The notes: generated from the sequence alone by a model not told the origin. A stretch of DNA of 64,000 nucleotides from Mycobacteriales bacterium (GCA_045806985.1 JBJMIH010000031.1:10038-74037), one strand, 5' to 3'. Shown: positions 1 to 64,000, numbered from the stretch's first letter. Program-made: numbers and translations.

Positions 1-566
1 TACGCCTCATCCTCGCCGTCGGCGACCAGGTGCGCGACGCCGGAGCACCGGCTGTGCACCCGGCCGCCGCCCAGGCCCTCCATGTCGATCTGCTCGCCGG
101 TGACGCTGCGCACCACGTCCGGGCCGGTCACGAACATCCGGCCGCCGCCGGACATGATGACCAGGTCGGTGAGGGCGGGCCCGTACGCGGCGGCGCCGGC
201 CGCCGGCCCGAGCACCACCGACAGTTGCGGCACCTTGCCGGAGGCCCTCGTCATCGCGGCGAACATCCGCCCGACCGCGTCCATCGACTCGATGCCGTCG
301 GCGAGGGCCGCGCCGCCCGAGTGCCACATGCCGATGACCGGGCATCCCTCCCGGACGGCGGTCTCGATGGCGGCGACGATGGTCCGGCCGTCGGCCGCGC
401 CCAGCGCGCCGCCCATCCGGGTGGCGTCGGTGCAGTACCCGATCGCGGGCGCGCCGCCGACCCGGCCGCGGGCGGCCAGCGTGCCGCCGCCGTTCGGCCC
501 GAACGGTCGCATCGTGTCGCGGTCCATGAGCCTGCGGAGCCTGACCGCGGGGTCGCGTGGTTCCAT
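1..566 (-). CDS. Acyl-CoA carboxylase carboxyltransferase (beta) subunit, N-terminal ~188 codons; the 3' end runs off the window
   Basis: Missing from the ORF track because it is open at position 1. I hand-translated the minus strand codon by codon from the ATG at 566-564: [188 protein letters not shown]. The HSGGA, GPaaGaaaY, FVTGPdVV..VTGE and LGG pattern is typical of AccD/PccB-type carboxyltransferases. Confidence 0.85.
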   Translation of the reverse strand, partial: MEPRDPAVRLRRLMDRDTMRPFGPNGGGTLAARGRVGGAPAIGYCTDATRMGGALGAADGRTIVAAIETAVREGCPVIGMWHSGGAALADGIESMDAVGRMFAAMTRASGKVPQLSVVLGPAAGAAAYGPALTDLVIMSGGGRMFVTGPDVVRSVTGEQIDMEGLGGGRVHSRCSGVAHLVADGEDEA

Positions 567-687
567 TACGACCATTCTTCGGTGCCTTCCTTGGGTACCG
601 CCAAAGTGACGCTTGAGTAACTGGAATAGGGGTGGAACCGTGGGCTTAGGGGTAGGCCGTCGGGCGACCGGGAAATAGCGTTGAGGT
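567..687. promoter_or_regulatory. Divergent intergenic region between the carboxyltransferase gene and the small DUF5988-like ORF; candidate promoters/operator
   Basis: 121 bp with locally lower GC. It contains the direct repeat TAGGGGT(G/A)G at 627-635 and 647-655, spaced 20 bp apart. No promoter hexamers could be assigned confidently. Confidence 0.3.
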
Positions 688-900
688 ATGGACGAAAAGA
701 CGACGATAATTCTTTGTGGCGGCCCGGAGTGCCTGGACGAGTGCGAGCGGGTGCGCCATTGTTCCGAGCTTCCCGACAAGGTCGTCGTCGACCTCAACGG
801 CGGGCACGAGAGGTTCGAGCCCGCCGGTGAGTACCGCGACCTGGACGGGGAGAAGGCCGCCGTCTTCGAGTGGTGCTACCGCACCGCCGTCGCGGAGTGA
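688..900 (+). CDS. Small hypothetical protein (70 aa), resembles the actinobacterial DUF5988 family
   Basis: ATG preceded by GAGG. The composition is balanced, not the Arg/Pro/Gly-rich kind. The layout (IILCGGPECLD...VVVDLNGGHERFEP...VFEWCYRTAVAE) matches my recollection of DUF5988 proteins (..LEGGP..LP...K...GGYEHFE....W..RT.IAE). Family assignment is from memory, not from a search. Confidence 0.55.
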   Translation: MDEKTTIILCGGPECLDECERVRHCSELPDKVVVDLNGGHERFEPAGEYRDLDGEKAAVFEWCYRTAVAE

Positions 901-919
901 TGGCTGCGGTGATGGCGGC

Positions 920-1510
920 CTAGTGCTTGCGGCACAGCGTGATCTCGTCCTCGACCGGGTAGGTCGGGTCGGTCTTGCTGATGACCCGCCACCGCCAGGT
1001 CCCGGACATGCCGGCGTACCGGCCGCTGGTGCCCCTGATCGCCATGCTCACCCAGTCCTGGGCGATGACCGAGGTGCGGTCCTGCGTCCCGGTGCCGACG
1101 AGCGTGCCGTCCGAAAAGTGCATCTGCTCGGCGATGTACTGCACGACGTGGCCGTCCGGCCGCGCGTAGAGCAGGTCCAGGTCGCCGGCGGCGGTCGCCA
1201 CGTGCTGGTTGCCCGTGAAGTCGTACAGCTCGTCGAGGTAGGCGGACATGTAGCCGGGGTTGACCGGGATGCCGGTCCCCACCGGTTGGTTGGTCATGAA
1301 CTTGACGGTGTGCTCCACCAGGTGCTTGCGCGCGCAGCCGGCCTTCGCCCTCGCCGCGTCGGCGGCGCTGGCGTGGTGCCCGCCGGTCGCCGCCGGCACG
1401 GCGAAGGCCGCGGTCGCGGCGGCCGCGACCGCGGCGGCCGCGACCGCGGCGGCCAGCACTGCCAGCCGCCGCGGTGAGTATCGCCGCCCGATCAGCTCGA
1501 ACGGTCGCAT
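920..1510 (-). CDS. Secreted small protein, paralog 1 of 3 (dirigent / allene-oxide-cyclase-barrel-like, function unknown)
   Basis: 196 aa. ATG at 1510 preceded by GAAAGGGGA. N-terminal twin-Arg/Ala-rich signal-like segment (IGRRYSPRRLAVLAAAVAAAAVAAAATAAFA/VPA). The mature part begins near a Cys (AGCARKH) and ends ITLCRKH, giving a conserved Cys pair. The GTSGRYAGMSGTWRWRV motif resembles the GGTG.y.Ga.G strand of dirigent/AOC-like beta-barrels. Confidence 0.8.
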   Translation of the reverse strand: MRPFELIGRRYSPRRLAVLAAAVAAAAVAAAATAAFAVPAATGGHHASAADAARAKAGCARKHLVEHTVKFMTNQPVGTGIPVNPGYMSAYLDELYDFTGNQHVATAAGDLDLLYARPDGHVVQYIAEQMHFSDGTLVGTGTQDRTSVIAQDWVSMAIRGTSGRYAGMSGTWRWRVISKTDPTYPVEDEITLCRKH

Positions 1511-1531
1511 CGTCTCGTCCCCTTTCGCTCG

Positions 1532-2095
1532 TCAGGAGTGGTGCCGGCACAGCGTGATGGTGTCCTCGATCGGATGGTTCGGCTGTGTCACCAGTACCCG
1601 CCACCGCCAGGTCCCGGACATGCCGGCGTACCGGCCGCCGGTGCCCTTGACCGGCATGCCCACCCACTTCTGGGCGAGCTCGTCGGCCTGGTCCTGGGCC
1701 CCCGTCCCGACGAACGTGCCGTCCGGGAACTGGACCTGCTCGGCCGCGTACTGCACGAGGTGGCCGTTGGACTTCCGGGAGATGATGTCGAGGCCGCCGG
1801 TGCCGGACGCGACGTGCTGGTCGGTGCCGAAGTTGTCCAGGTCGGTGAGGTAACCGGCCATCCAGCCGACCTTGTCCGGCGCCCCGGACGGCCCCACCGG
1901 CTCGTTGGGCAGGTACTTGAGGGTGTGCTCCGTCAGGTGCAGCCGCACGCACCCGGACGCCGGCTTGCTGGCGGCGGCGTGCGCGTGCCCGCCGGTCAGG
2001 GCCGGCGCCGCGACGGCGGCGGCCCCGGCGGCGAGCAGCGCGCCGGCCGGCAGCGCCAGCCGCCGCGGCGGAAGGTTCCTTCCGGGGATGCCCAT
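1532..2095 (-). CDS. Secreted small protein, paralog 2 of 3 (dirigent / AOC-barrel-like, function unknown)
   Basis: 187 aa. ATG at 2095 preceded by GAGGAAGGAG. Signal-like N-terminus (PPRRLALPAGALLAAGAAAVAAPALTGG). Cys near the mature N-terminus (SGCVRLH) and the C-terminal ITLCRHHS. GTGGRYAGMSGTWRWRV is identical in pattern to paralog 1. A conserved DNA tract (acccgccaccgccaggtcccggacatgccggcgtaccggccgc) is shared with paralog 1 at 983-1026 and 1588-1631. Confidence 0.8.
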   Translation of the reverse strand: MGIPGRNLPPRRLALPAGALLAAGAAAVAAPALTGGHAHAAASKPASGCVRLHLTEHTLKYLPNEPVGPSGAPDKVGWMAGYLTDLDNFGTDQHVASGTGGLDIISRKSNGHLVQYAAEQVQFPDGTFVGTGAQDQADELAQKWVGMPVKGTGGRYAGMSGTWRWRVLVTQPNHPIEDTITLCRHHS

Positions 2096-2108
2096 CTGGA
2101 CTCCTTCC

Positions 2109-2642
2109 TCAGTGGCAGAGGTTGATCTTCAGGGCGAACGTGTTCTCGGTGGGCACCTGCGACGGCCCGCTCAGCCGCTGGAACGCGACCGTGCCGACCG
2201 TGCCCTGGTACTTCCCGCCGGTGCCGACCGCCGGCAGCGTCACCCAGACGCCGGGCGTCTCGGCCTTGACGGCGTCGAAGAACGCGTCCTGCCGGACGGT
2301 GCCGCCGGGCAGCCGGTACTCGTACGAGGCGAGCGTGAGCACGGTGGGCTGCACGCTGCCGATCGTCGTGGAACCCACCGCGGTGCCGGACCTGCCGTCA
2401 CTGGAGGTGATCTTGTCGACGAACGCGATGCTGTCGCCCGGGGTCGGCGGGATCACCTTCCCCTGCACCGACATCTTCTGCACCTGCTCGCGGCCGGTGA
2501 ACGTGAGGCAGTTCGCCGCCGTCGTGTGTCCGGAGGCGGACGACCCCGGCGACACCACCGCGAGGCCGGCGGTCACGCCGCCGGCCACGACCGCGGAGGC
2601 GGCGAGCACCATCCACCGCTTCGAGAGTGACATGCGTGGCAT
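2109..2642 (-). CDS. Secreted small protein, paralog 3 of 3 (more divergent; dirigent / AOC-barrel-like, function unknown)
   Basis: 177 aa. RBS GGAAAGAGGA upstream of the start at 2642. Sec-type signal-like N-terminus (SKRWMVLAASAVVAGGVTAGLAVV). Cys pair (AANCLTF ... KINLCH). GTGGKYQGTVGTVAFQRL aligns with the G.G.Y.G..GT motif of paralogs 1 and 2. Confidence 0.75.
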   Translation of the reverse strand: MPRMSLSKRWMVLAASAVVAGGVTAGLAVVSPGSSASGHTTAANCLTFTGREQVQKMSVQGKVIPPTPGDSIAFVDKITSSDGRSGTAVGSTTIGSVQPTVLTLASYEYRLPGGTVRQDAFFDAVKAETPGVWVTLPAVGTGGKYQGTVGTVAFQRLSGPSQVPTENTFALKINLCH

Positions 2643-2705
2643 ACACGGTCCTCTTTCCTTGAGGCTGAACCAGCTTCAATGGTGAAGACCGCGGGTTAAG
2701 CCACG

Positions 2706-4262
2706 CTAATGCCGCCCTTGAGCCATCTCGGATTGGCGGCTCGGATCGGCCAGCTCCTTTTCCCGCTGGCTCGGCCCGCGCGGCACGAACAGCAGTGCGA
2801 GGACCATTCCGGCGACCGCGATGAGCCCGCAGGCGACCAGCATGACGTCCATTCCGTGAATGAACGCCGACCGCACCGAGTGCAGCAGCGCGGGCGAGTG
2901 CAGCTTGCGGGCGACGGCCGTGCCGCTGAGCACGGACCGGCGTGCCGCGTCGGCGGCGGGGGCGGGCAGGCCGGTCAGGTTCAGCCGACCCCGGTACCCG
3001 GAGTTGATCACCGAGCCGAGCAGCGCCACCCCGAACGTGCCGCCCACCGTCCGGATCGCGGTGATCAGCGCCGAGCCGACCCCGCTGCCCTCGGCGCTGA
3101 GGACCGCCAGCGCGGCGTTCATCGAGCCGGGCAGGGCCAGTCCGAGGCCCGCCCCGAGGAGCGCCACCCAGCCGGCGGTGAAGCCCTCGCCGCTGTGGAA
3201 GCCGGTCGTCGCGCCGGCGAACAGCCCGGCCGCCATCAGCGCGAATCCGGCCGCGATCGTCATCTTGGCGCCCACCCCGGCGGTGAGCCGGTCCGCGACC
3301 GCGCCACCGACCACCAGGCCGGCGATCATCGGCAGCAGCCGGATGCCGGCGCCCATCGCGTCGGTGCCGCGCACGCCCTGGAAGTACTGGGGCACCGCGA
3401 ACAGCAGCCCGAACATCGCGAACGACACCAGCGTCGCCAGCAGCGTCCCCCAGGAGAACGTGCGGGACCTGAACAGCCGCAGGTCGACCAGGGGCTGGCC
3501 GTCCGGCCGCCGGCCCAGCCGGCGCTCCCACTCCACGAACCCGGCCAGCACCACCGCGCCGAACAGCATCGGCAACACTGACCCCAGGTTGCTCCAGCCC
3601 TTCTGGCCAGCCTCGATCGCGCCGTACGTGAGCGCGGCCAGGGCGACGCTGGAGCCCAGGATGCCGGTCATGTCCAGGTCCGGCCGCCGCTCGCTGCGCG
3701 ACTCCGGCAGCAGTACCGCCACCGCCACCACCGCCAGCGCGGACACCGGCACGTTGATGAGGAACACCGAGCCCCACCAGTAGTGGGTGAGCAGCCAGCC
3801 GCCCAGCAGCGGGCCCAGCGGGTAGGCCACCACGGTCATGCCGACCAGCACGATCACCGCCCGGCCGCGCTCCTCCTCGCTGAACAGCACCGGCAGCACC
3901 GACAGCGACAGCGGCAGCACGAACGCCGCACCGAGCCCGAGCACCACCCTGGCGGCGATGAGCTGGCCCGGCGAGGTGGTGTACGCGCACCACAGCGACG
4001 AGGCCCCCAGCACCACCAGGGAGATCACCAGGAAGATCCGGCGGCCGTACCGGTCGCCGAGCAGGCCGCCCGGCAGCAGCATCGCGGCCATCGCGAGCGT
4101 GTAGGCGTCGACGATCCACTGGAGATCGGTGGTGGACGCGTGCAGGTCGGTGGACAGGGTCGGCAGGGCGAGGTTGAGCACGGTGGCGTCCAATCCCACC
4201 ACCAGCAGGGCGAGGGCGAGCGCGCCCACCGCCCACCACCGACGGTCACCTACCTTGGCCAT
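2706..4262 (-). CDS. MFS transporter, DHA2 (EmrB/QacA-like, 14-TMS type) drug:H+ antiporter; probable product exporter / self-resistance
   Basis: 518 aa. N-terminus WWAVGALALALLVVGLDATVLNLALPTLSTDLHASTTDLQWIVDAYTLAMAAMLLPGGLLGDRYGRR is the classic DHA2 signature. Hydrophobic segments run throughout. The start lies 24 nt after the PKS4 stop, with GAAGGG upstream. Confidence 0.9.
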   Translation of the reverse strand: MAKVGDRRWWAVGALALALLVVGLDATVLNLALPTLSTDLHASTTDLQWIVDAYTLAMAAMLLPGGLLGDRYGRRIFLVISLVVLGASSLWCAYTTSPGQLIAARVVLGLGAAFVLPLSLSVLPVLFSEEERGRAVIVLVGMTVVAYPLGPLLGGWLLTHYWWGSVFLINVPVSALAVVAVAVLLPESRSERRPDLDMTGILGSSVALAALTYGAIEAGQKGWSNLGSVLPMLFGAVVLAGFVEWERRLGRRPDGQPLVDLRLFRSRTFSWGTLLATLVSFAMFGLLFAVPQYFQGVRGTDAMGAGIRLLPMIAGLVVGGAVADRLTAGVGAKMTIAAGFALMAAGLFAGATTGFHSGEGFTAGWVALLGAGLGLALPGSMNAALAVLSAEGSGVGSALITAIRTVGGTFGVALLGSVINSGYRGRLNLTGLPAPAADAARRSVLSGTAVARKLHSPALLHSVRSAFIHGMDVMLVACGLIAVAGMVLALLFVPRGPSQREKELADPSRQSEMAQGRH

Positions 4263-4286
4263 GACATCCGCCCTTCTCGCGTCGGG

Positions 4287-8522
<4,236 letters not shown>

Positions 8523-8528
8523 GTGGCA

Positions 8529-34774
<26,246 letters not shown>

Positions 34775-34777
34775 TCG

Positions 34778-53732
<18,955 letters not shown>

Positions 53733-53743
<11 letters not shown>

Positions 53744-54818
53744 CGCTGAGCCCCTCCCGCACCCGGCCGCGCGCCTTCGCCAGCCACCAGGCCAGGTCGA
53801 GCACCGCCCGCCGCGGGCCGCGCACGCCCCGCATCCGCAGCACGGACTGGGCCGTGAACAGCTTCGACTCGGTCACGTGCCCAGGCGAGGCGTGCACGTC
53901 GTCGATCTCGGCGGTCCGCACGTTCGGCGCGTGCGCGGCGAGCCGGCGCGGGTCGGCCGGCGGGATGATCTCGTCCCGCCTGCTGGCCAGGTACGCCACC
54001 GGCACCGGCAGCGCGGCCAGCATGTCGTCGGTGAGCGCCCAGTCCGGCAGCAGGCCGGGCAGGCCCTCGGCCTTGCCGCCGGTGAGGTGCGCGAGCGTGT
54101 CGACGGTCACCTTCGGCAGCCGCTGCTGCCAGGCCGGGTCGGTGAAGAACGCGCTGACCGGCGCGCCGGCCGTCACCACCCCCCGGATGCGGCGGTCGGT
54201 GAGCGCGCAGCGCAGCGCCAGGTGCCCGCTGAAGCTGAGGGCGACCGCGTACGTCCGCGCCACGTCGGCCCGGTCGGCGACCGCGTCCAGCACCGCGGAC
54301 AGGTACCGCCAGCTGTCCGGGCCGTAGCTCGCCGGGTTCTCGCCGACGCCGGGCAGCTCGGCCACCACGCCGGCCATGCCGGTCCGGCCCAGGTCGGCCA
54401 GCAGCGGCGCCCACTGCTCCTTCACGCTGACGATGCCGCCGCAGACCAGCAGCAGCGGGCGGCGCTTCGATCCGGACAGGCCGGACGCCCAGCAGCGCAC
54501 GTCGCCGGCGTCCACCCGCTCGATGCCGCGCCGGCCCCGCCGCCAGGTGTCGAACGCGGCGACGCAGGCGTCCTGCGCCCGCTGCCGGGCCGGGCCGTCC
54601 ACGTACGGGAAGCGCGCCATCGCGTACCGCCGGCTGCCGCCCAGCGGGTCGCCGGCCGCCACCCGCCGGTCACCGGCCGCCGTCCACTGCACCACCCAGG
54701 AGGTCGGGCTGTCCTCGGCGTCATCGGTGATCCGGTCCAGCACCTCCCGGTGGTCCCTGATGTCCTGGGCGCGGGCGTGCACGGTCGCGAACCGCTTCAG
54801 CTCCTCGACGTCGTTCAT
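53733..54818 (-). CDS. Alpha/beta-fold hydrolase of the tetronate cassette (AbyA5/ChlD4/Agg5/QmnD4-position; candidate acetate-eliminating, exocyclic-methylene-forming enzyme)
   Basis: 361 aa. FrsA-like alpha/beta hydrolase look. The candidate nucleophile elbow is AVALSFSGH, a variant of GxSxGG. It sits immediately after the E2-like gene (ATGA overlap at 54815-54818), and its stop overlaps the PKS1 start by 11 nt. The functional call rests on gene context and family analogy. Confidence 0.75.
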
Positions 54819-55579
54819 GCCGGCTCTCCCTTGAAGTTCTCCAGCGCCTCCTTGATCTCGCCCAGCACGTCGGCGGCTTCCGCGCCGTCGATCACCCGGT
54901 GGTCGAAGGCCAGGCTGAGCCGCATCGCCGGTACCACGACCACCTCGCCGCGCCGCGCGACCGGACGGTCGGCGACCTGGCCCATGCCGAGCGTGATCGT
55001 GGTGCCGCCGACCGAGTGGAAGGCGTCGACCGGCCGGTGCCCCAGCGAGCTGACCGCGAACGTGCCGACCAGCTCGGGCCGGCGGCGCAGCGAGCGCATC
55101 CCGGCGCGGTACAGCAGCCGGCCCAGCGGCACGGGCAGCTTCTGCAGCATCCGGGGGCCGGCGAACTCCGGCATGTTGGCGGCGTCGCCGTCGCGGTAGT
55201 GGTCCACCTGGGCCTGGATGTCGGCCAGGCCGGCACTGTCCAGGTCCGGCAGGACGGCGGTGAGCACCACCCGGTGGCCGTTGACGGTCTTGTCCAGCGC
55301 GAGCTTGCCGCTGGCCGTCCCGTACCTGGCCACCCGCGGCCGGGACCAGCCGGTGATGGCCCCGTTCGCCTCCGGGTGCCCGACCAGCACGCGGGCGGCC
55401 GCGTACAGCACGTAGCTGACCGTCGAGTACCGCTCGCCGCGGGCGCGGGCCTCCTCCCGGTGCGCGGTCACCGCGCTCATGTCCACCTCGGTGTCCAGGA
55501 AGACCGGCGCGAACTCACGGGCCTGGCCGAGGAACTGGTAGGTGTGCCGCCGCTCCCTGGGCAGCTGGTTGATGGTCAT
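54815..55579 (-). CDS. 2-oxoacid dehydrogenase E2-type acyltransferase, catalytic domain only (AbyA4/ChlD3/Agg4/QmnD3-position)
   Basis: 254 aa. The C-terminal segment LSLAFDHRVIDGAEAADVLGEIKEALE contains the DHRxxDG catalytic motif of E2 acyltransferases. No lipoyl or E3-binding domain is present. ATGA overlap with the ACP stop at 55576-55579. Confidence 0.85.
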   Translation of the reverse strand: MTINQLPRERRHTYQFLGQAREFAPVFLDTEVDMSAVTAHREEARARGERYSTVSYVLYAAARVLVGHPEANGAITGWSRPRVARYGTASGKLALDKTVNGHRVVLTAVLPDLDSAGLADIQAQVDHYRDGDAANMPEFAGPRMLQKLPVPLGRLLYRAGMRSLRRRPELVGTFAVSSLGHRPVDAFHSVGGTTITLGMGQVADRPVARRGEVVVVPAMRLSLAFDHRVIDGAEAADVLGEIKEALENFKGEPA

Positions 55580-55803
55580 GTCCCCACCGCCACTGTGTAG
55601 ATCTGTTCGAGGCTCCTGGCATGCAGCAGGTCGGGCAGCGACAGCTGCCGCCCGGTGTCCCGCTCGAGGAGGGTGAGCAGCCAGAGCAGGTGCATCGAGT
55701 CCCAGCCGGGCAGCTCGTCCAGGTCGCGGCCGGCGTCGGCGTCGGATACCTCGATGCCGAGCTCGTCGCGCACCACGGTCAGCAGGTCGTCCATGCTGTT
55801 CAC
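55576..55803 (-). CDS. Discrete acyl carrier protein (glyceryl-ACP carrier; AbyA3/ChlD2-position)
   Basis: Only the last ~75 codons of track ORF 55576..57321 make sense: (VNS)MDDLLTVVRDELGIEVSDADAGRDLDELPGWDSMHLLWLLTLLERDTGRQLSLPDLLHARSLEQIYTVAVGT. The phosphopantetheine Ser sits in GWDSMH (codon 55696-55698). The start is either the GTG at 55803 (GTGA overlap with the FkbH-like stop) or the ATG at 55794. Confidence 0.8.
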   Translation of the reverse strand: MNSMDDLLTVVRDELGIEVSDADAGRDLDELPGWDSMHLLWLLTLLERDTGRQLSLPDLLHARSLEQIYTVAVGT

Positions 55804-57677
55804 GTCGGTTCCCGTTCGAGTTCGTCGGTGAGGCGCACGCAGTCCGGCGGCGCCACGATGTCGGTCAGGTCGTGGCGGAACAGCGCGGTGCCGCCGTCGT
55901 CGCCGACCTTGGTGAAGCCGTGCCGCGGGTAGAACTCGCGCATCGCGCGGTTCTTCGCGGTCGGCCGGTACGCCCCGTACACCGCCGCCGCGCCGGCGTC
56001 CCGCGCGTGCCGCAGCAGCGCCGCCAGGCAGGCCCGCTCGATGCCCCGGACGAACACCCGGCAGCTGAGCAGGAAGTTCTCCACGGTCATGCCGTCGCCG
56101 CCGCGCCGGGCGAAGATCGCGCCAACCATCCCGTTGTCGCCGAACCGGTCGCTGGCCCGGATCGTCAGCACCAGCGCGTCCGGGTCGTCCAGCAGGGCGC
56201 TGACGTCGGCGGGGGACAGCCGGCGGGTGGTCAGGTTGAACTGGTTGGTCCGTAGCGTGAGCTGGGACAGCCGGGGCACGTCCGGCTCGCCGGCCCTGGC
56301 CAGCCGGACCCGGATGTCCAGCTCGCGGCGGTACTCGTCGAGGGACTCGAAGTGCTGGAGGAAGTCGGTGCGGTCCAGCTCCTCGCGGTAGCGGGCGACC
56401 CTGGCGCGGTCCTCCTCGGTCAACTCCCGGGTGTCGAACCAGCCGTCGGCCAGCAGCCGGTCCACGTGCAGCGCCGGCTCGCCGTCGACCTCCACCACGG
56501 CCACGTCCGGCAGCTCGCGGCGGACCAGCCCGCGCTCGGCGGGGCTGTCGTCCACGAACACGACGCTGTCGGCGCCCAGGTTGAGGGCGGCGACCAGCTC
56601 GGCGAGGCTCTCGTGCTTCGGCCCCCAGCCGGCGGCGACCCGCACGAAATCCTCCTCGCGCAGCGTCATCTCCGGGTGCTCGCGCAGCGCCTGGCGCACC
56701 GGCTCGGGGTCGTTCTTGCTGACCGCCGCCAGCAACACCCCCTGCGCGCCGAGCTGCCTGGCGACCCGCTGGAAGGCGCGGAACGCCTCGCCGCGGTCGC
56801 CGCCGGCCACCTCCAGGCCCTCCACCCCGTCGTCGCCGAGCGTGCCGCCCCACACCGTCTCGTCCAGGTCGAGGGCCAGGCACTTGCGGGTACGGCCGGT
56901 GAGGTGGCGGGCCAGGTGGCCGACCTCGCGGGCGTAGCGGGCCAGCAGCTCCAGGGACAGGTGGCAGCCGGCGTAGGTGTCCAGCCGCGGCTCCACGGCC
57001 GGCACGCCACCCTCGGCCAGCAGCGGGTCCAGATCCACCACGACGGTCGCGGGGTGGTCTTCCGGCAGCCGCAGCAGGCGCGCGTTCGCCTCCCGCCAGG
57101 CGGCGCCGAGCGCGGCCCGGGACCGGTGGTCGACCAGCTGCCCGGTGACCGCGCGGGGGAGCGGCAGGGTGTTCAGCACCAGCGTGCCGGCGCCCGTGCC
57201 CTCGTACCGGCCGGCCAGCCGCTCCACCAGCTCGACCTTCGCGGCCAGCACCCGCCCGGCGTCCGCCGGCCGCCACGGCAGCGGCAGCTCGTCGGTCACC
57301 ATCCGGGGGTCCAGCACGCACAGCACCAGGTCGCAGTCGCCGGCGTAGACCAGGCTGTCCGGATCGGACAGTTCGCGGGCGTAGCCGCCGTACTCGCCCA
57401 CCTCGGCGCGCAGCAGCAGCCCGTGCCGGGCCAGCTCGGCGGCGAGCGGCGGCAGCAGGCCGGCGAGCGTGCCGTGGCCGGTGAGCGCGACCCGCACGGC
57501 GGGCACGTCCGGGTGCCGGCCGGCCACCTCGTCCGGGTCCAGCCGGGCGAGCAGCCGCCCGGCCTGGGCCAGCCCGTCGCCGTCCAGGTCCGCGAGCAGC
57601 TGCCTGACCCGCGGGTACCCGGCCGCCAACCGGCCGGTGCGGTACAGGTCGAGGAGCTCGGCGAGCGGCGTCGACAT
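55800..57677 (-). CDS. FkbH-like glyceryl-S-ACP synthase (HAD phosphatase + acyltransferase; AbyA2/ChlD1-position)
   Basis: 625 aa from the ATG at 57677 (MSTPLAELLDLYRTGRL...). The HAD motif is LALDLDETVWGG (DxDxT). VFVDDSPAE and FLLSCRVFVRGIE (Cys motif) are typical of FkbH-like domains. The ATG overlaps the FabH-like stop. The longer track ORF (to 58076) overlaps the FabH-like gene and is Arg/Gly-rich. Confidence 0.9.
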   Translation of the reverse strand: MSTPLAELLDLYRTGRLAAGYPRVRQLLADLDGDGLAQAGRLLARLDPDEVAGRHPDVPAVRVALTGHGTLAGLLPPLAAELARHGLLLRAEVGEYGGYARELSDPDSLVYAGDCDLVLCVLDPRMVTDELPLPWRPADAGRVLAAKVELVERLAGRYEGTGAGTLVLNTLPLPRAVTGQLVDHRSRAALGAAWREANARLLRLPEDHPATVVVDLDPLLAEGGVPAVEPRLDTYAGCHLSLELLARYAREVGHLARHLTGRTRKCLALDLDETVWGGTLGDDGVEGLEVAGGDRGEAFRAFQRVARQLGAQGVLLAAVSKNDPEPVRQALREHPEMTLREEDFVRVAAGWGPKHESLAELVAALNLGADSVVFVDDSPAERGLVRRELPDVAVVEVDGEPALHVDRLLADGWFDTRELTEEDRARVARYREELDRTDFLQHFESLDEYRRELDIRVRLARAGEPDVPRLSQLTLRTNQFNLTTRRLSPADVSALLDDPDALVLTIRASDRFGDNGMVGAIFARRGGDGMTVENFLLSCRVFVRGIERACLAALLRHARDAGAAAVYGAYRPTAKNRAMREFYPRHGFTKVGDDGGTALFRHDLTDIVAPPDCVRLTDELEREPT

Positions 57678-58771
57678 CAGGCCCCCGCCACCTTCTCCAG
57701 CTTCTCCAGGGCGAAGCCGGCCTCGATCCACTTGCTGGACTCGATCGCGACGCCGGCGGCCCTGTCGCCGGCGGCCATCCGCGGCAGCAGCTGCTCCAGC
57801 TGGAAGAAGGGCAGCGCGTTGCCGTTGTTTCCGGTGCGGGCCACGCAGCTCACCTCGGCCGCGTCCCGCACCGCCAACCGCTCCACGATCCGGCCGGTCA
57901 TCGCGCCGGACAGCTGCGGCGGCAGCAGGTGGTCCAGGTCGTCCGGCTTCCAGTCCAGCCGGTCCAGCAGCTCGGTGAGGGTGTCGGCGGCCAGCTCGGG
58001 CACGGATTCCTCGATGGCCTTGTAGTCCTCGCCGCCGGCCGGCCGGTCCGCGTCGCGGTCGGCCAGCCCGAACCACTCCACGGTCTGGCCCGGCGGCCGT
58101 CCCCTGCCGACCAGGCGCACGAACGCGTCCCGCAGCACCACGTCACCGGCGCCGGCGGCCCCGGTGGCGGCGGCGGTGGCGGTGGTGGCGGCGGTGGGCT
58201 CGGTGGTCAGCACCGCCGCGCCGGCGCCGTCGCCGAAGAGCACCACGTTGACCAGCTGCTCCGGCGCCAGCGTGTGCAGGTCGAGGGTCAGGTCCAGGTG
58301 CTTGGCGCACACGTCGCCGCCGAGCACCAGCGCGGTACGGCACCGGCCCGCGCGCAGCATCGTCGCGGCCACGTCCAGCGCCTGGACGGCGCCCGAACAC
58401 CCCGACTGGAGCTGGTAGCTGGGTATCCCGTCGATCCCGATCCGGTCGGCGACCACGTTCACGGTGGCCGGCATGAGCGCGTCCGGCGTCGCGGTCCCCA
58501 TCACGATCAGCCCGACCTCCGCGGGCTCGACCTCCGCCTGCTCCAGCGCGGCCCGCCCCGCGGCGGTCGCCAGGTCCGCCAGCCCGCACCGCACCTCGCC
58601 CGACTCCAGGTCGACGGCGAGGTGCCGGCTCGCGGTCCCGACGAACGAGTCGATCCACTGCTCCCAGACCGAGTTCATCCCGAACCGCCTGGCCAGCATC
58701 GCGTTGCTGACCGGAGGACCCGGCAACTCCGTACCGACCCCGACCACTCGCACTTCCGGAACGCTCATCAC
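57677..58771 (-). CDS. FabH-like ketoacyl-ACP synthase III homologue (tetronate ring-forming; AbyA1/ChlM/Tmn15/RkD-position)
   Basis: 364 aa. The GTG at 58771 is followed immediately by an ATG at 58768, with GGTGGGGA upstream. Motifs seen: VRVVGVGTELPG, active-site Cys in QLQSGCSGAVQAL, VLFGDGAGAAVL, and GNNGNA at the FabH Asn position. The FabH HQAN position reads PPQLS by hand alignment. Confidence 0.9.
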   Translation of the reverse strand: MMSVPEVRVVGVGTELPGPPVSNAMLARRFGMNSVWEQWIDSFVGTASRHLAVDLESGEVRCGLADLATAAGRAALEQAEVEPAEVGLIVMGTATPDALMPATVNVVADRIGIDGIPSYQLQSGCSGAVQALDVAATMLRAGRCRTALVLGGDVCAKHLDLTLDLHTLAPEQLVNVVLFGDGAGAAVLTTEPTAATTATAAATGAAGAGDVVLRDAFVRLVGRGRPPGQTVEWFGLADRDADRPAGGEDYKAIEESVPELAADTLTELLDRLDWKPDDLDHLLPPQLSGAMTGRIVERLAVRDAAEVSCVARTGNNGNALPFFQLEQLLPRMAAGDRAAGVAIESSKWIEAGFALEKLEKVAGA

Positions 58772-58839: not shown

Positions 58840-59484
58840 CTACCGGGGATCGGTGGTGAGGTAGGCGACGACCATGTCGCCGACCATGCGGCGTTGCTTT
58901 CGGCGGTATCCGGGGTCGGTCAGGTCACGGCCGAACAGGGCGCCGAAGGTGTGCTGGTTGGCGACGCGGAAGAAGCAGAACGCGCTGATCATCAGGTGCA
59001 GGTCGAGCGCGTCGGCCGGGGCGACGAAGTCGCCGCTGGCGCGGCCGGCCGCGAGGATCCTGGAGATCAGGTCGAGCACGGGCGCGCCCAGGTTGACCAG
59101 CAGGTCGGACTTGCGCAGGTGCTCGGCGCGGTGGATGTTCTCGATGCTGACCAGCCGGATGAAGTCGGGATGCGCGTCATGGTGGTCGAAGGTCAGCTCG
59201 GCCAGCGTGCGGATCGCCTCGACCGGGGCCAGGTGGGCCACGTCGATGCTGGCCTCGGCGGCGCGGATCTCGCTGTACGCCCGCTCCAGCACGGCGATGT
59301 AGAGCTGCTCCTTGCCGCCGAAGTAGTAGTAGATCATCCGCTTGGTGGTGCGGGTCAGCGCCGCGATCTCGTCCACCCGCGCGCCGTCGTACCCCTGCCG
59401 AGAGAACTCGCGCATGGCGACGTTCAGGATCTCTGCCCGGGTGCGTTCCGCGTCGCGCTGGCGCATCGCCGCCAGTCTAGACAC
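58840..59484 (-). CDS. TetR-family transcriptional regulator
   Basis: 214 aa. The N-terminal HTH region ERTRAEILNVAMREFSRQGYDGARVDEIAALTRTTKRMIYYYFGGKEQLY is the TetR signature. GTG start at 59484; an alternative ATG lies at 59466. It sits 68 bp upstream of the FabH-like gene and 1 nt downstream of the preceding stop. Confidence 0.9.
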   Translation of the reverse strand: MSRLAAMRQRDAERTRAEILNVAMREFSRQGYDGARVDEIAALTRTTKRMIYYYFGGKEQLYIAVLERAYSEIRAAEASIDVAHLAPVEAIRTLAELTFDHHDAHPDFIRLVSIENIHRAEHLRKSDLLVNLGAPVLDLISRILAAGRASGDFVAPADALDLHLMISAFCFFRVANQHTFGALFGRDLTDPGYRRKQRRMVGDMVVAYLTTDPR

Positions 59485-59485
59485 G

Positions 59486-60286
59486 TCAGCCGAGGTAGGC
59501 GGGCAGTACCGAGGGCGGTACGGGTCCCTTGTTCCGCCGGCCCTGGCCCGCCTCCTCCCACGCGTGCGCGAGGATGCCGACGCTCCTGCTCAGCACGAAA
59601 AGGCCGCGGGCCAGCGGCGCCGGGAAGCCCAGCTCGGCGAAGATGATCGCGGTGGCGCCGTCGATGTTCATCGGCACCGGCCGGCGCCGGACCGTGGTGA
59701 GGCGCGCCTCCAGCGCCAGGCCGGCGCGCAGGTGGTCCCCGGCGACCAGCCCGTCCCGCACGGCGCCGTCCACCAGCGACAGCAGCGGGTCGCGGCGCGG
59801 GTCGACGGGATGGAACCGGTGCCCGAACCCGGGCAGGTAGCGCGGCCCCTCGGCGATCACCCGGTCCGCGGCCGCGGCCAGGTCGAGGCCGGTCGCGGCC
59901 AGCTCCCGTACCCGGTCCAGCAGCTCGACGCACTGCTCGCCGGCCCCGCCGTGCACGTCGCCGAGCACGTTGACGCCGCTGGCCACCGCGTTGTTGAGGC
60001 CGACACCGCAGGTGACCGCCATCCGGGCGATCGCCACCGACGGCGCCTGCGGGCCGTGGTCGACGGCGGCGACCAGCGCCGCCTCCAGCAGCCGGGCCCG
60101 GCCGGGGTCGGGCAGCTCGCCGCGCAGCATCAGCCAGATGACGCCGGCCAGGCCGGTCCGGCCGATGAGGTCCTGCACCGGCCGCCCGCGCAGCTCCAGC
60201 ACGCCGGGTTCCATCCGGGACACCGCCGTACCCCACCAGCCGGCCACCTGGCCGGTCGGGTCGACGTCGTTGACCGGGCCGGTCAT
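59486..60286 (-). CDS. Short citrate-synthase-family protein (citryl-CoA lyase-like)
   Basis: 266 aa from the ATG at 60286 (MTGPVNDVDPTGQVAGWWGT...). GDVHGGAGE and PGFGHRFH resemble citrate synthase catalytic His motifs. It is far shorter than a full citrate synthase. ATGA overlap with the CoA-transferase stop. The upstream part of the track ORF (to 60889) is Arg/Pro-rich and was rejected. Confidence 0.75.
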   Translation of the reverse strand: MTGPVNDVDPTGQVAGWWGTAVSRMEPGVLELRGRPVQDLIGRTGLAGVIWLMLRGELPDPGRARLLEAALVAAVDHGPQAPSVAIARMAVTCGVGLNNAVASGVNVLGDVHGGAGEQCVELLDRVRELAATGLDLAAAADRVIAEGPRYLPGFGHRFHPVDPRRDPLLSLVDGAVRDGLVAGDHLRAGLALEARLTTVRRRPVPMNIDGATAIIFAELGFPAPLARGLFVLSRSVGILAHAWEEAGQGRRNKGPVPPSVLPAYLG

Positions 60287-61479
60287 GACGCCGTCGCCTC
60301 CCCGGCCCAGTCGCGCCAGCGGGCCACCAGCCCGTCCCGCTCGGCGTTGTGCTCGCCGAGCAGCGGCGGCGGCGCGGTGGCCGCGAGGGGCTCGCCGTCG
60401 TGCAGCACGCCGCTGCCGCTGACCCGCACCGTCCGTCCCGACCCGTCCGGGAACGGCAGGTCGGTGAAGAAGCCGCGGTGGGCGAGCTGGTCCAGCCCGA
60501 CCGCCTCCGGGACGGTGACGACGCGGGCGGCCGGCACGCCGGCGGCGGTGAGCAGCCGTTCCCACTCGGTGGCCGGCCGGGTCCGCAGCGCGCCGGTCAG
60601 CTCCCGGTTGAGCGCGTCGCGGTGGGTGCGGCGGTCCTCCCGGTCGGCGAACCGCCGGTCGGTGGCCAGGTCGGCCCTGCCCACCACCGCGCACAGCGTC
60701 TCGAACTGCCGCTGCTGGTTGGCGGCGATGTTCAGGGCGCCGTCGGCGGTGGCGAAGGTGCCGGACGGCGCCGCGGTCGCGTTCTGGTCGCCCATCGGCT
60801 CCGGCGCGACCCCGCTGACCAGGTAGTGGGTGACGGTCCATGCCATCGCCGAGAGCGCGACCTCCAGCATGGACAGGTCGAGGTGGCAACCCCGGCCGGT
60901 GCGCTCGCGGCCGGCCAGCGCGGCGCAGATGTGCAGCGCCGCGGCCAGCCCGCCGAGCGTGTCGCAGACCGGGAAGCCGACCCGCAGCGGCACGGTGTCC
61001 GGCGTGCCGGTGACGCTCATCATCCCGGACAGTCCCTGGATGATCTGGTCGTACGCGGGCGCCTGGCTCATCGGCCCGTCCTGGCCGAAGCCGGAGATCG
61101 CGCAGTACACCAGGCGCGGGTTGAGCTCGCCGAGCCGGGGCCAGCCGTACCCGAGCCGGGCCAGCACCCCGGCGCGGAAGTTCTCCAGCAGCACGTCGGC
61201 GCCGCGCACCAGGTCGGTGAACACCGCCCTGTCCGCGGTGTCCTTGAGGTCGAGCTCGACGGACTTCTTGCCGGCATTCTGGGCGAGGAAGGAGGCGCCC
61301 AGGCCGGCCCGGTTCAGCGCCGGCTCCGGCCCGAGGTGCCTGGCCAGGTCGCCCTGCCCGGGCACCTCGACCTTGACGACTTCCGCGCCGAGCAGCGCGA
61401 GCTGGTAGGCGCAGTACGGACCGGCCAGCACGTTGGTGAGGTCGACCACGCGTACGCCGTCGAGCGGTCGCTGCTGCAT
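60283..61479 (-). CDS. CaiB/BaiF-family (class III) CoA-transferase
   Basis: 398 aa from the ATG at 61479. MQQRPLDGVRVVDLTNVLAGPYCAYQLALLGAEVVKVE is the canonical family N-terminus. ENFRAGVLARLG and GFPVCDTLGG (catalytic Asp region) are also present. Confidence 0.88.
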   Translation of the reverse strand: MQQRPLDGVRVVDLTNVLAGPYCAYQLALLGAEVVKVEVPGQGDLARHLGPEPALNRAGLGASFLAQNAGKKSVELDLKDTADRAVFTDLVRGADVLLENFRAGVLARLGYGWPRLGELNPRLVYCAISGFGQDGPMSQAPAYDQIIQGLSGMMSVTGTPDTVPLRVGFPVCDTLGGLAAALHICAALAGRERTGRGCHLDLSMLEVALSAMAWTVTHYLVSGVAPEPMGDQNATAAPSGTFATADGALNIAANQQRQFETLCAVVGRADLATDRRFADREDRRTHRDALNRELTGALRTRPATEWERLLTAAGVPAARVVTVPEAVGLDQLAHRGFFTDLPFPDGSGRTVRVSGSGVLHDGEPLAATAPPPLLGEHNAERDGLVARWRDWAGEATAS

Positions 61480-61514
61480 CCGGCTGCTCCTCGGTCGGCT
61501 CGGGTCAGGGTCGC

Positions 61515-62354
61515 TCAGGTCGAGGGGCTGAGCGGGTGCTCGAAACCGCGCTCCGACATCCGGGCGGCGACCTCGCGCAGGTCCCCGGCGAACTCCTCGA
61601 CACGGTCGTCGGTGAAGCGGACGGTGGGCCCGCTGAGCGAGAGCGCGGCGACCACGGCGCCGGACCGGCCGGTGACCGGCGCGGCCACCGCCGACAGCCC
61701 GTCCTCGCGCTCGCCGTGGCTCACCGCCCAGCCGCGGTACGCCACCTCGTCGATCCACTCGCGCAGCCGCCGCACGTGCTCCGGCCCGTACGGGGAGGCG
61801 GCCGCGACCCTGGCCAGCAGCGTGTCGGGCGCGTCGCGGAGCAGCACCTTCGCGGACGCGCCCGCCCACAACGGAAGCTCGTCGCCGACGTGCACCACGT
61901 GCCGCAGCGGTTGCGGGCTCTCCTGCTGGGCGACGCAGACGCGCCAGGTGTCGCGCCGCAGGTACAGGTTGACGGTCTCGCGCTGCCGCGCGCCCAGGTC
62001 GCGGATGAGCTTGCGGGTCTCCGGGGGCAGCTCCCAGCCGCTGCGGACCAGGTGCGCCCACCGCCAGAGGCCGGGGCCGGCGCGGTACCCGCCCGGCGTC
62101 GCCCACAGCAGGCCGTTGCGCTCCAGCGTCTGGGCCAGCCGGATCGCGGTGGTCTTGGCCAGGCCGGTGGCCGTCACGATGTCCCTGATCGAGATCGACG
62201 GGCGCTCCTCGGTCAGCAGCGCCAGGATGTCGAGGGCCCGCTGGACGCTCCGGACGCCCGACTGTTCGGTGTCCTCGTTCTCCGCGATCACATCCGGGAG
62301 CCTACTCCACGGTCCGTGTACCGGTCCAGGCGCGCCGTCAAGTGGCACCGGCAC
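61515..62354 (-). CDS. IclR-family transcriptional regulator
   Basis: 279 aa with a GTG start. The wHTH region is VRSVQRALDILALLTEERPSISIRDIVTATGLAKTTAIRLAQTLERNGLL. The C-terminal effector domain contains GWAVSHGEREDGLSAVAAPV. The true start may be a little further downstream. Confidence 0.88.
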   Translation of the reverse strand: MPVPLDGAPGPVHGPWSRLPDVIAENEDTEQSGVRSVQRALDILALLTEERPSISIRDIVTATGLAKTTAIRLAQTLERNGLLWATPGGYRAGPGLWRWAHLVRSGWELPPETRKLIRDLGARQRETVNLYLRRDTWRVCVAQQESPQPLRHVVHVGDELPLWAGASAKVLLRDAPDTLLARVAAASPYGPEHVRRLREWIDEVAYRGWAVSHGEREDGLSAVAAPVTGRSGAVVAALSLSGPTVRFTDDRVEEFAGDLREVAARMSERGFEHPLSPST

Positions 62355-62469
62355 GGATCTGTTTTGACCTCTTCCCTTCTTTGAACAGCGTCACTATAAA
62401 TAACTCACCAGTTCGTACATTAGGCACCGATCCGCTGGTTGGTACGGACAGACCGTCCTGGGAGGGCCG
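62355..62469. promoter_or_regulatory. AT-richest intergenic region of the window, between divergent IclR and aldehyde dehydrogenase genes; candidate divergent promoters / IclR operator
   Basis: The sequence is ggatctgttttgacctcttcccttctttgaacagcgtcactataaataactcaccagttcgtacattaggcaccgatcc. TTGACC/TTGAAC-like and TATAAA/TATAGT-like hexamers occur on both strands, but their spacings do not fit a canonical sigma-70 promoter as I counted them. Confidence 0.35.
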
Positions 62470-63951
62470 ATGCTGGACACCCTGGTCACGGCCGCCGCCG
62501 GAACCGGTCCGGTGACCGTCCCGGCGCGGATCGGCGGCGCCTGGACGGACGCCGGTACCAGGCACGACCGGCTCGGACCGTACACCCGCACCGCGGTCAG
62601 CACGGCCCCGTGGGCGAGCCGGACCGACATCGCCGCCGCCCTCGACTACGCGGCGGCCGCCGCGCCGGTGCTGGCCGCGACCGCGCCGGCCGCCCGTGCC
62701 GACGTCCTCGAGCGCGCCTCGGCGGCGGCGGCCCTGCACCGCGACGACCTCGCCAGGCTGCTCGCCGTCGAACTCGGCAAGCCGGTCAAGGACGGGCGCG
62801 GCGAGATCGACAGGGTCGGCGAGACCTTCGCGGTCTGCGCGGCCGAGGCCCGCCGGATCGGCGGTGAGGTGCTGCCGTCGGCCGGCTGGGCGCGCGGCGT
62901 CGGCACCACCGCGCTGACCCACCGGGCGCCGGCCGGCGTGGCGCTGGCCATCACGCCGTTCAACGCGCCAGCCAACCTGCTCGCGCACAAGCTCGGCGCG
63001 TCCTTCGCGGCCGGCAACACCACGATCGTCAAGGCGCCGCCGCAGGCACCGGCCAGCTCCGCCGCGGTGGTGGCGCTGCTGCTGGCCGCCGGCGCTCCCG
63101 CCGAGGCGGTGCAGCTGCTGCACGGCGGCGGCGAGGTGGGCGCGGCGTTGTGCGCGGCGCCCGAGGTCGACGTCATCAGCTTCACCGGGAGCCCGGCCAC
63201 GGGCGCGGCCGTGGCGCGGGCGGCCGGCGCCAAGCGGCTGGTGCTGGAGCTGGGCGGCAACGCGGCCACCATCGTCTGCGAGGACGCCGACGTCGCGGCC
63301 GCCGCCCGGACCTGCGCCGCCACCGGGTACTCCAACTCCGGCCAGAGCTGCGTCTCGGTGCAGCGGGTGTACGTGCACCGGTCCCGGTACGCGGAGTTCC
63401 TCGACCTGTTCACCGCGGCGGTCGGCGCGCTGGTGGTGGGCGACCCGCTCGACTCGGCGACCGACGTCGGGTCGATGGTGGACGACGAGGCGGCCGAGCG
63501 GGTGGTGCGGTGGGCCGCCGAGGCCGCCGCCGGCGGCGGCCAGGTGCTGCTCGGGGGTACCCGGAAGGACGCGACGGCCGCCCCGACGGTGGTGGCCGAC
63601 CCGTCGCCGGACGCCTCCGTCGTCACCCGGGAGGTGTTCGGGGCGCTGGTGGCGGTGCTCCCGTACGACGACTTCGCCGCCGTGGTCGCCACTCTCAACG
63701 CGAGCCGGTACGGCCTGCAGGCCGGCCTGTTCACCGGCGACCTCGGCCGGGTCGTCGCCGCCTGGCGCGACCTGCGGGTCGGCGGGCTGGTCGTCAACGG
63801 CTCCTCCAACTTCCGGCTCGACCACGTGCCGTTCGGCGGCGTGAAGGACTCCGGCTTCGGCCGGGAGTCGCCGCGCTGGCTGATCGAGGACTTCACGGTG
63901 GTCAGGACCCTGCTGCTGCGCGGCATGTCGCTGTGGGGCGAGCGGCGGTGA
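62470..63951 (+). CDS. NAD(P)-dependent aldehyde dehydrogenase
   Basis: 493 aa. ATG preceded by GGGAGGG. ALDH motifs seen: ITPFNAP, FTGSPATG, LELGGNA (Glu active site), and GQSCVSVQRVYV (Cys active site). Confidence 0.9.
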   Translation: MLDTLVTAAAGTGPVTVPARIGGAWTDAGTRHDRLGPYTRTAVSTAPWASRTDIAAALDYAAAAAPVLAATAPAARADVLERASAAAALHRDDLARLLAVELGKPVKDGRGEIDRVGETFAVCAAEARRIGGEVLPSAGWARGVGTTALTHRAPAGVALAITPFNAPANLLAHKLGASFAAGNTTIVKAPPQAPASSAAVVALLLAAGAPAEAVQLLHGGGEVGAALCAAPEVDVISFTGSPATGAAVARAAGAKRLVLELGGNAATIVCEDADVAAAARTCAATGYSNSGQSCVSVQRVYVHRSRYAEFLDLFTAAVGALVVGDPLDSATDVGSMVDDEAAERVVRWAAEAAAGGGQVLLGGTRKDATAAPTVVADPSPDASVVTREVFGALVAVLPYDDFAAVVATLNASRYGLQAGLFTGDLGRVVAAWRDLRVGGLVVNGSSNFRLDHVPFGGVKDSGFGRESPRWLIEDFTVVRTLLLRGMSLWGERR

Positions 63952-64000
63952 GGGCGGTCGCGCTGGTCGCGCCCGGCGAGGTGGCCGTCATGGACGACTG
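63948..64000 (+). CDS. Probable zinc-type (MDR) alcohol dehydrogenase, first ~17 codons only
   Basis: The GTG at 63948 overlaps the ALDH stop (GTGA). VRAVALVAPGEVAVMDD resembles MDR N-termini (M.A.vl..pg.v.....). Too short to be sure. Confidence 0.35.
   Translation, partial: MRAVALVAPGEVAVMDD

Follow-up and report, generated by a model that had tools for sequence, protein, structure and literature searches.

Which enzyme could close the spiro ring in a tetronate polyketide cluster that appears to lack a cyclase? The question is raised by a stretch of 64,000 nucleotides from an uncultured Mycobacteriales bacterium (GCA_045806985.1, JBJMIH010000031.1:10038-74037); the whole stretch is called the window here, and it contains a complete-looking tetronate polyketide cluster. 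A sequence-only reading of the window had reported no recognisable [4+2] cyclase, flavin adenine dinucleotide (FAD)-dependent decalin synthase, cytochrome P450 or glycosyltransferase. The last three absences are borne out by Pfam and by a six-frame motif scan; the first is not. Three tandem paralogs near the left edge, P1, P2 and P3, score above the cut-off of a cyclase family profile and match crystallised Diels-Alderases, whose fold is shared by the models of P1 and P3. The cluster is likely to specify a decalin-free spirotetronate pathway in which P1-P3 are [4+2] cyclases and cyclisation takes place outside the cytoplasm.

Three members of the AbyU/PyrI4 cyclase family

All three paralogs exceed the gathering cut-off (25.9 bits) of the Pfam profile PF18678 (AOC_like), with E-values of 6.8e-19 for P1, 7.9e-13 for P2 and 8.8e-12 for P3 (bit scores in Table 1). 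PyrI4 is a member of the same profile family and matches P1-P3. NCBI names P1 (MFL6072389.1) and P3 (MFL6072391.1) 'allene oxide cyclase barrel-like domain-containing protein'; no NCBIfam model matches the three paralogs or the neighbouring DUF5988 protein.

Similarity to solved enzymes was assessed by plain phmmer searches against PDB sequences. P1 matches Cyc15 (8OF7; 8.2e-28), Cyc15b (1e-24), AbyU (2.6e-12) and AbnU (1.4e-10) and, more weakly, PloI4 (3e-9), AbmU (5.6e-9) and PyrI4 (3.3e-8). P2 matches Cyc15 (2.3e-20), AbmU (1.8e-10) and AbyU (5e-8), while P3 matches PloI4 (7.8e-6) and AbyU (6e-4). P2 is 56% identical to P1 and P3 is 28% identical to it. By sequence, P1 and P2 appear to be Cyc15-like; P3 is divergent and appears nearer to PloI4 and AbyU. 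The closest solved relatives of P1 and P2 are Cyc15 (8OF7) and Cyc15b (9QP8), of the Streptomyces sp. NL15-2K type. Cyc15 and P1 are 39% identical over the barrel, which is an eight-stranded beta-barrel in both. Cyc15 is an experimentally active cyclase and converts a methylene-tetronate triene to a spirotetronate in vitro (PMC10946715).

The fold agrees with the sequence matches. AF2 models were made for P1 and P3, from alignments of 68 and 83 sequences respectively. Both models have eight strands and a mean predicted local distance difference test (pLDDT) score of 86, with values above 90 in the barrel. In Foldseek comparisons of the two models with the PDB, the top 41 matches are all Diels-Alderases of the AbyU/PyrI4 family. 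P1 matches Cyc15 with template modelling (TM) scores of 0.86-0.94 and AbyU with a TM score of 0.89 and a root mean square deviation (rmsd) of 1.8 Å; P3 matches AbyU with a TM score of 0.85 and an rmsd of 2.0 Å. AbyU (5DYV; abyssomicin) and AbmU (6LE0; neoabyssomicin) have both family and fold in common with P1-P3.

Ranking next after the Diels-Alderases, for both models, are PodA (5K21), which is a pyocyanin demethylase of Mycobacterium, and plant allene oxide cyclases and dirigent proteins; the barrel also supports other small-molecule chemistry. PodA and the tetronasin and tetronomycin enzymes Tsn15 and Tmn8 share the barrel superfold with P1-P3 and catalyse reactions of another kind than the spiro-forming Diels-Alder cycloaddition. 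Neither PodA (Foldseek E-values of 1e-4 to 5e-7 against the paralogs) nor Tsn15 (sequence E-value of 0.85 and 15-17% identity against P1) is the best match of any paralog.

The equivalent of AbyU Glu19 is kept in all three proteins in the family alignment (E66 in P1, E56 in P2 and E52 in P3). The aromatic pair of the AbyU cavity, Phe41/Trp124, aligns with Tyr91/Trp174 in P1, Tyr82/Trp165 in P2 and Phe74/Phe154 in P3. The cluster around the three genes contains both a diene source (polyketide synthase modules 1-2, with dehydratase and ketoreductase domains) and a full 5-exomethylene tetronate cassette.

Profile searches, which had been set beforehand as a check, place open reading frames of the window in a known cyclase family. 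This result agrees with the earlier suggestion that the role falls to an unrecognised protein, such as the secreted paralogs. The proposals of an acyclic methylene-tetronate product or of spontaneous cyclisation lose their basis now that cyclase family members are present.

Predicted export leaders and a cysteine pair

P1-P3 depart from the known enzymes mainly in their N-termini, which look like signal peptides. The leader of P1, MRPFELIGRRYSPRR-LAVLAAAVAAAAVAAAATAAFAV-PAATGGHHASA, covers about residues 1-48; that of P2 is MGIPGRNLPPRR-LALPAGALLAAGAAAVAAP-ALTGGHAHA. Both are of the twin-arginine (RR) type. The leader of P3, MPRMSLSKR-WMVLAASAVVAGGVTAGLAVV-SPGSSAS, is of Sec type. Each has an n-region with positive charge, then 15-23 residues of Ala/Val/Leu as the h-region, and AxA-like sites.

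The leaders are evidently translated, because a Shine-Dalgarno sequence precedes each ATG (AAGGGGA for P1, a strong GGAAGGAG for P2 and AAGGAAAGAGGA for P3) and the third-position G+C content (GC3) over codons 1-50 is that of coding sequence (0.92-0.96 for P1-P3, with 0.92 for P1). Over-extended annotated starts were considered and rejected: besides the Shine-Dalgarno sequences and the leader GC3, there is no downstream start that leaves the barrel intact.

The three proteins also have a Cys pair, which is Cys59/Cys193 in P1 and Cys45/Cys176 in P3; in P2, the first Cys aligns with those of P1 and P3. In the P1 and P3 models, strand 1 opens with the first Cys, and the second lies at the end of strand 8, within a conserved 'LC' motif. 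Strands 1 and 8 are neighbours in the closed barrel; a disulfide is therefore plausible. Cyc15b lacks a Cys where P1 has Cys59, and the alignment with Cyc15 begins downstream of this residue.

HMMER was run exhaustively against 1.84 billion cluster representatives and returned 128 relatives, of which 125 could be scored for a leader by a simple charge-and-hydrophobicity rule. A leader-like N-terminus is present in 87 of these 125, a share that may be inflated by the use of a leader-bearing query. Of the 87 leader-bearing representatives, 75 have the Cys pair; of the 38 without a leader, 13 have it (Fisher p = 1.4e-8). Lipobox-like motifs are present in several family representatives.

Signal-bearing homologues occur inside tetronate or polyketide synthase (PKS) clusters in seven further loci with interpretable neighbours (L002 and L004-L009; L003 was too short and was left out), and no leaderless family member is visible in any of the seven. 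Among metagenomic loci, the AOC_like gene of L004 is followed by an FkbH-size gene and by acyl carrier protein (ACP), 2-oxoacid_dh, FrsA-like and PKS genes, and that of L008 by a ketoacyl-ACP synthase (KAS) III gene. A public sequencing-run assembly (L009) has the acyltransferase-ACP end of a PKS before the AOC_like gene, and 2-oxoacid_dh, FrsA-like and thioesterase (TE) genes after it. In Streptomyces sp. NRRL F-525 (L005), MMPL and major facilitator superfamily (MFS) genes precede the AOC_like gene; LuxR, DUF5988, SARP, TE, FAD_binding_3 and PKS genes follow. DUF5988, 2-oxoacid_dh, FrsA-like, PPTase and ADH genes precede it in Dactylosporangium salmoneum (L006), where the next gene encodes a PKS of 7361 amino acids (aa). 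Streptomyces sp. 6N223 (L007) has FrsA-like, 2-oxoacid_dh and PALP genes before the AOC_like gene, and TE and SARP genes after it. The pairing of FrsA-like and 2-oxoacid_dh genes that is found in the window is thus seen again in L004, L006, L007 and L009. Taken together, a large subfamily with export signals and a conserved Cys pair appears to recur inside tetronate clusters.

The locus of Amycolatopsis sp. CA-126428 (L002, 5075-7681) has an MFS pump gene flanked by two AOC_like genes, and this group lies between PKS genes. The first AOC_like gene product has a lipobox-like 'AASGC' motif, which suggests a lipoprotein-anchored cyclase. A search of genome contigs with the paralogs matched only a 27%-identical Amycolatopsis locus; the search of metagenome contigs gave no match.

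The leaders set P1-P3 apart from enzymes that are otherwise similar. The Cyc15 gene has about 145 codons and encodes no signal peptide, whereas P1-P3 are leader-bearing. AbyU and AbmU are cytoplasmic and single-copy, in contrast to the three leader-bearing paralogs found here. More than one AbyU-type barrel per pathway is also seen in quartromicin biosynthesis, where QmnH contains two fused AbyU-type cyclase domains (PMC10946715). QmnH is, however, a single two-domain cytoplasmic protein that performs intermolecular cycloadditions; here there are three genes, each with a predicted signal peptide. No account of signal peptides or of secretion in bacterial spirotetronate cyclases came up in full-text literature searches. 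In a paper describing a library of 45 cyclases, leaders were trimmed only for one plant protein and one gammaproteobacterial protein.

Gene content and predicted product

The G+C content across the window is 70-79%; raw open reading frame lists are uninformative for this reason, and genes were called from GC3. Frame analysis gives 21 genes and assigns nearly all coding capacity. On this map, the intergenic gaps are too short to hold another enzyme. All 17 non-PKS products were scanned with Pfam and NCBIfam, and all four PKS proteins were scanned with Pfam in pieces. The whole window was also checked with a six-frame regular-expression scan for the P450 haem loop, GT1 and FAD Rossmann motifs. 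The features are listed in Table 1.

Table 1. Features of the window with their supporting matches. PKS domains: KS, ketosynthase; AT, acyltransferase; DH, dehydratase; ER, enoylreductase; KR, ketoreductase; M1-M9, extension modules, with the extender indicated by the AT motif in brackets.
Feature	Coordinates	Strand	Evidence and remarks
Carboxyl transferase (acyl-CoA carboxylase beta subunit)	3-575	-	PF01039, E 8.5e-41; N-terminal 191 aa, open at left edge
DUF5988 protein, about 70 aa	688-900	+	PF19450, 74.1 bits; between paralogs and carboxyltransferase gene
P1, 196 aa, AbyU/PyrI4 family	920-1510	-	PF18678, 68.2 bits
P2, 187 aa, AbyU/PyrI4 family	1532-2095	-	PF18678, 48.6 bits
P3, 177 aa, AbyU/PyrI4 family, divergent	2109-2642	-	PF18678, 45.3 bits
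DHA2/EmrB-type MFS efflux transporter	2706-4262	-	PF07690, 1.2e-53; TIGR00711, 239.5 bits, above cut-off
PKS, module 9	4287-8522	-	Pfam and motif analysis; M9 KS-AT-dimerisation element-(about 366 aa, no KR signature)-ACP (malonyl)
PKS, modules 7 and 8	8529-19667	-	Pfam and motif analysis; M7 KS-AT-DH-ER-KR-ACP (methylmalonyl); M8 KS-AT-DH-KR-ACP (malonyl)
PKS (PKS_B), modules 4, 5 and 6	19664-34774	-	Pfam and motif analysis; M4 KS-AT-DH-ACP, no KR (methylmalonyl); M5 KS-AT-DH-KR-ACP (methylmalonyl); M6 KS-AT-DH-ER-KR-ACP (malonyl)
PKS, loading module and modules 1, 2 and 3	34778-53743	-	Pfam and motif analysis; loading module KSQ (DAAQSS)-AT-ACP (malonyl); M1 KS-AT-DH-KR-ACP (methylmalonyl); M2 KS-AT-DH-KR-ACP (methylmalonyl); M3 KS-AT-DH-ER-KR-ACP (methylmalonyl)
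FrsA-like alpha/beta hydrolase	53733-54818	-	PF06500 and PF00561
2-oxoacid dehydrogenase-type acyltransferase	54815-55579	-	PF00198, 8.9e-23
Stand-alone ACP	55576-55806	-	PF00550
FkbH-like glyceryl-S-ACP synthase	55800-57680	-	TIGR01686 FkbH domain, 300.9 bits (cut-off 146.65)
FabH-like KAS III	57677-58771	-	PF08545 and PF08541; NF006829
TetR-family regulator	58840-59484	-	PF17938 and PF00440
Citryl-CoA lyase	59486-60259	-	NF004864, 394 bits
CoA-transferase III	60283-61494	-	Pfam/NCBIfam
IclR regulator	61515-62354	-	Pfam/NCBIfam
Aldehyde dehydrogenase	62470-63951	+	Pfam/NCBIfam

The PKS was assigned by motif and Pfam analysis of its four proteins. The DH and KR domains of modules 1 and 2 are all intact. 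In module 9, the stretch after the dimerisation element has neither a KR Pfam match nor the NADPH and catalytic Tyr motifs; it is therefore read as a silent KR (KR0). This is consistent with retention of the 3-keto group, which is needed to form the tetronate ring. The same terminal module has no thioesterase domain. Module 4 (about 30900-34774, minus strand) has a DH with an intact HxxxGxxxxP motif and no KR, so no beta-hydroxy substrate is made for this DH, which may be vestigial or serve some non-canonical function.

From the domain order, the KSQ-primed synthase with its nine extension modules is predicted to make a C20 chain bearing six methyl branches. It would have one conjugated diene at its start (C16-C19, from modules 1-2), isolated double bonds at C10=C11 and C4=C5 (from modules 5 and 8) and ketones at C13 and C3. 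A terminal diene combined with a 5-exomethylene tetronate follows abyssomicin-type logic and would predict a spirotetronate that lacks a decalin. Abyssomicin pathways use PKSs of about seven modules together with a P450 tailoring step; this cluster differs in having nine extension modules and no P450. The terminal diene from the first PKS modules, the 5-exomethylene tetronate and the lack of any need for an FAD decalin synthase are common to both.

Since the PKS makes a single conjugated diene, no decalin is predicted and no FAD decalin synthase is expected; the sequence-only reading was misplaced in expecting one. The PyrI4 and ChlL pathways need such an extra enzyme (PyrE3 or ChlE3) for a second diene/dienophile pair, and neither is found here. 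A second, decalin-forming cycloaddition was considered and rejected, as only isolated double bonds (modules 5 and 8) are present beyond the diene of modules 1-2.

Pfam detects no FAD_binding_3/aromatic-ring hydroxylase-like or other flavin monooxygenase domain in any of the 21 gene products. The FAD Rossmann motif has no coding-frame match; its sole six-frame match is antisense and non-coding, inside a PKS gene. No product contains PF00067, and the P450 haem loop FxxGxRxCxG is absent from all six frames. No glycosyltransferase or sugar-pathway domain is found by Pfam, and the six frames contain no GT1 C-terminal motif. As the window encodes neither a P450 nor a glycosyltransferase, an unoxidised aglycone is predicted; it would be a C29 compound that has neither a decalin nor a sugar.

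All five genes of a tetronate cassette of the RK-682, abyssomicin or chlorothricin type are present and contiguous (53733-58771, minus strand). The FkbH-like enzyme is a putative glyceryl-S-ACP synthase and the ACP would be used for glyceryl loading; the FabH-like KAS III is the presumed condensing enzyme that forms the tetronate ring. The 2-oxoacid_dh-type acyltransferase probably acetylates the 5-hydroxymethyl tetronate. Its partner, the FrsA-like alpha/beta hydrolase, is the candidate eliminase of the acyltransferase/hydrolase pair that makes the exocyclic methylene, i.e. the dienophile. From gene to gene within the cassette, and from the cassette to the first PKS gene, neighbours overlap by 4-11 bases; cassette and PKS are therefore apparently translationally coupled in one operon. 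At the other end of the PKS genes, the DHA2 MFS pump gene adjoins the three cyclase paralogs, and the pump is a candidate for exporting either the tetronate intermediate or the product.

Four independent tetronate/PKS loci have a DUF5988 (PF19450) gene close to their signal-bearing AOC_like genes, namely the window (688-900, plus strand) and three other loci (L001, 777-989; L005, 11595-11813; L006, 5251-5487). The DUF5988 protein of 70 aa has several Cys residues, including a CGGPEC motif.

The left flank was judged from one relative contig alone (L001, 85% identical), in which a P2 homologue and a P1 homologue are followed by DUF5988, a carboxyl transferase of 466 aa and a TPR/LuxR regulator. 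This carboxyl transferase is the full-length homologue, at the corresponding position, of the gene that is open at the left edge of the window and that probably serves extender-unit supply. Beyond the P1 homologue, the L001 flank contains nothing resembling a cyclase or an oxidase, and the cluster probably ends just past the left edge of the window. On the right, the TetR gene is the probable edge of the cluster. The genes to its right (59486-63951) are probably an unrelated organic-acid/CoA operon that marks this edge; a role in precursor supply is also conceivable.

Proposed pathway and its alternatives

In the proposed pathway, the KSQ-primed nine-module PKS would build the C20 chain with its terminal diene and retained 3-keto group. 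FkbH, ACP and KAS III would join the chain to a glyceryl unit to give the tetronate, and acetylation by the acyltransferase followed by elimination by the FrsA-like hydrolase would create the 5-exomethylene dienophile. The resulting acyclic 3-acyl-5-methylene tetronate would be made in the cytoplasm and exported by the DHA2 pump. Outside the membrane, at least one of the exported barrels P1-P3 would template the intramolecular Diels-Alder reaction that yields the decalin-free spirotetronate. Such a product does not need an FAD-dependent decalin synthase. Cyclisation is placed outside the cytoplasm, after or during export, because of the signal peptides, the probable barrel-closing disulfide and the adjoining DHA2 pump. 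The paralogs P1/P2 and P3 may form heteromers, set stereochemistry, or act in different steps or cyclisation outcomes. A broader proposal is that, in this and many other actinomycete tetronate clusters, a pumped-out acyclic methylene-tetronate is cyclised extracellularly by Sec/Tat-exported, disulfide-stapled AbyU-type barrels; this is tentative, and its chances are somewhat below even.

A number of points weigh against extracytoplasmic cyclisation by P1-P3. The cyclase activity of P1-P3 and of the other signal-bearing members is a prediction from sequence and models, and the AbyU/PyrI4 family includes enzymes that are not Diels-Alderases (Tsn15 and, more remotely, PodA). Every characterised family member is leaderless and cytoplasmic, in contrast to P1-P3. 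The signal peptides were called by heuristics rather than by SignalP or TatP, and the leader bias of the survey query has been mentioned. The PKS and the cassette are cytoplasmic; exported cyclases leave a topological gap, which the MFS pump must bridge. There are three cyclases for one predicted Diels-Alder pair. Finally, in the column of the salt-bridge Arg122, P1 and P2 have Trp and P3 has Val, whereas Cyc15 keeps the Glu-Arg salt bridge. Trp is present in this column in 18 of 68 aligned family members, and the motif in P1 and P2 is 'GTWRWR'. A Glu-Arg (or Glu-His) salt bridge that closes the head of the barrel is found in most members of the family but not in all (PMC10946715), and is not strictly defining. 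In P1-P3, the terminal Cys pair may replace it as the barrel closure.

Some of these points would also suit exported lipocalin-like barrels that bind or sequester the tetronate for self-protection, or that perform some other extracellular reaction, such as a rearrangement like that of Tsn15 or a modification like that of PodA; in that case the Diels-Alder step would proceed spontaneously, or an enzyme encoded elsewhere in the genome would catalyse it. The export signals and the Cys pair place P1-P3 outside the cell and away from the PKS, a single cycloaddition is predicted while the paralogs number three, the salt-bridge Arg has been replaced, and Tsn15 is in the family, with PodA as a remote fold match. 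Such a role is nevertheless unlikely. In the seven other loci, a signal-bearing AOC_like protein is the only family member visible, beside dienophile genes or between PKS genes; among solved proteins, the one most closely related to P1 and P2 is a spirotetronate cyclase with proven activity; and there is no other cyclase candidate within the 64 kb. It is less probable still that the hydrophobic N-termini are membrane anchors or lid-like extensions that hold the cyclases at the cytoplasmic face of the membrane, by the PKS and the pump. PyrI4-type enzymes do have an N-terminal helix as a lid (PMC10946715), and segment 13-33 of P1 is modelled as a helix by AF2. However, this segment has low pLDDT and is not packed on the barrel. 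It is pure Ala/Val/Leu, with Arg/Lys (RR) before it and AxA-like sites after it, and by the positive-inside rule the barrel would face outward. The Cys pair co-varies with the hydrophobic N-terminus, as extracytoplasmic disulfides would, and some relatives have lipobox-like motifs.

The possibility that there is no dedicated cyclase, with an acyclic product or spontaneous cyclisation, or that the true cyclase lies beyond the left edge, is very improbable: three family members above curated thresholds are present within the window. A cyclase to the left of position 1, as the sequence-only reading had allowed for, is also unnecessary; in L001, the flank past P1 holds only DUF5988, the carboxyltransferase and the LuxR-type regulator.

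The cyclase assignment is itself an ordinary correction, by which an apparently cyclase-less tetronate cluster becomes an ordinary decalin-free spirotetronate pathway from an uncultured Mycobacteriales metagenome-assembled genome. The lead towards an extracytoplasmic Diels-Alderase is moderately interesting. If export is true, P1-P3 would provide the first extracellular bacterial Diels-Alderase. The leader-bearing subfamily has further examples in Dactylosporangium salmoneum, Streptomyces sp. NRRL F-525, Streptomyces sp. 6N223 and Amycolatopsis sp. CA-126428. Export would bear on heterologous expression (trimmed constructs, with disulfides allowed to form), on biocatalyst mining and on self-resistance. 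If cyclisation is extracytoplasmic, the mature bioactive spirotetronate would never be inside the cell that makes it, and this would amount to self-protection.

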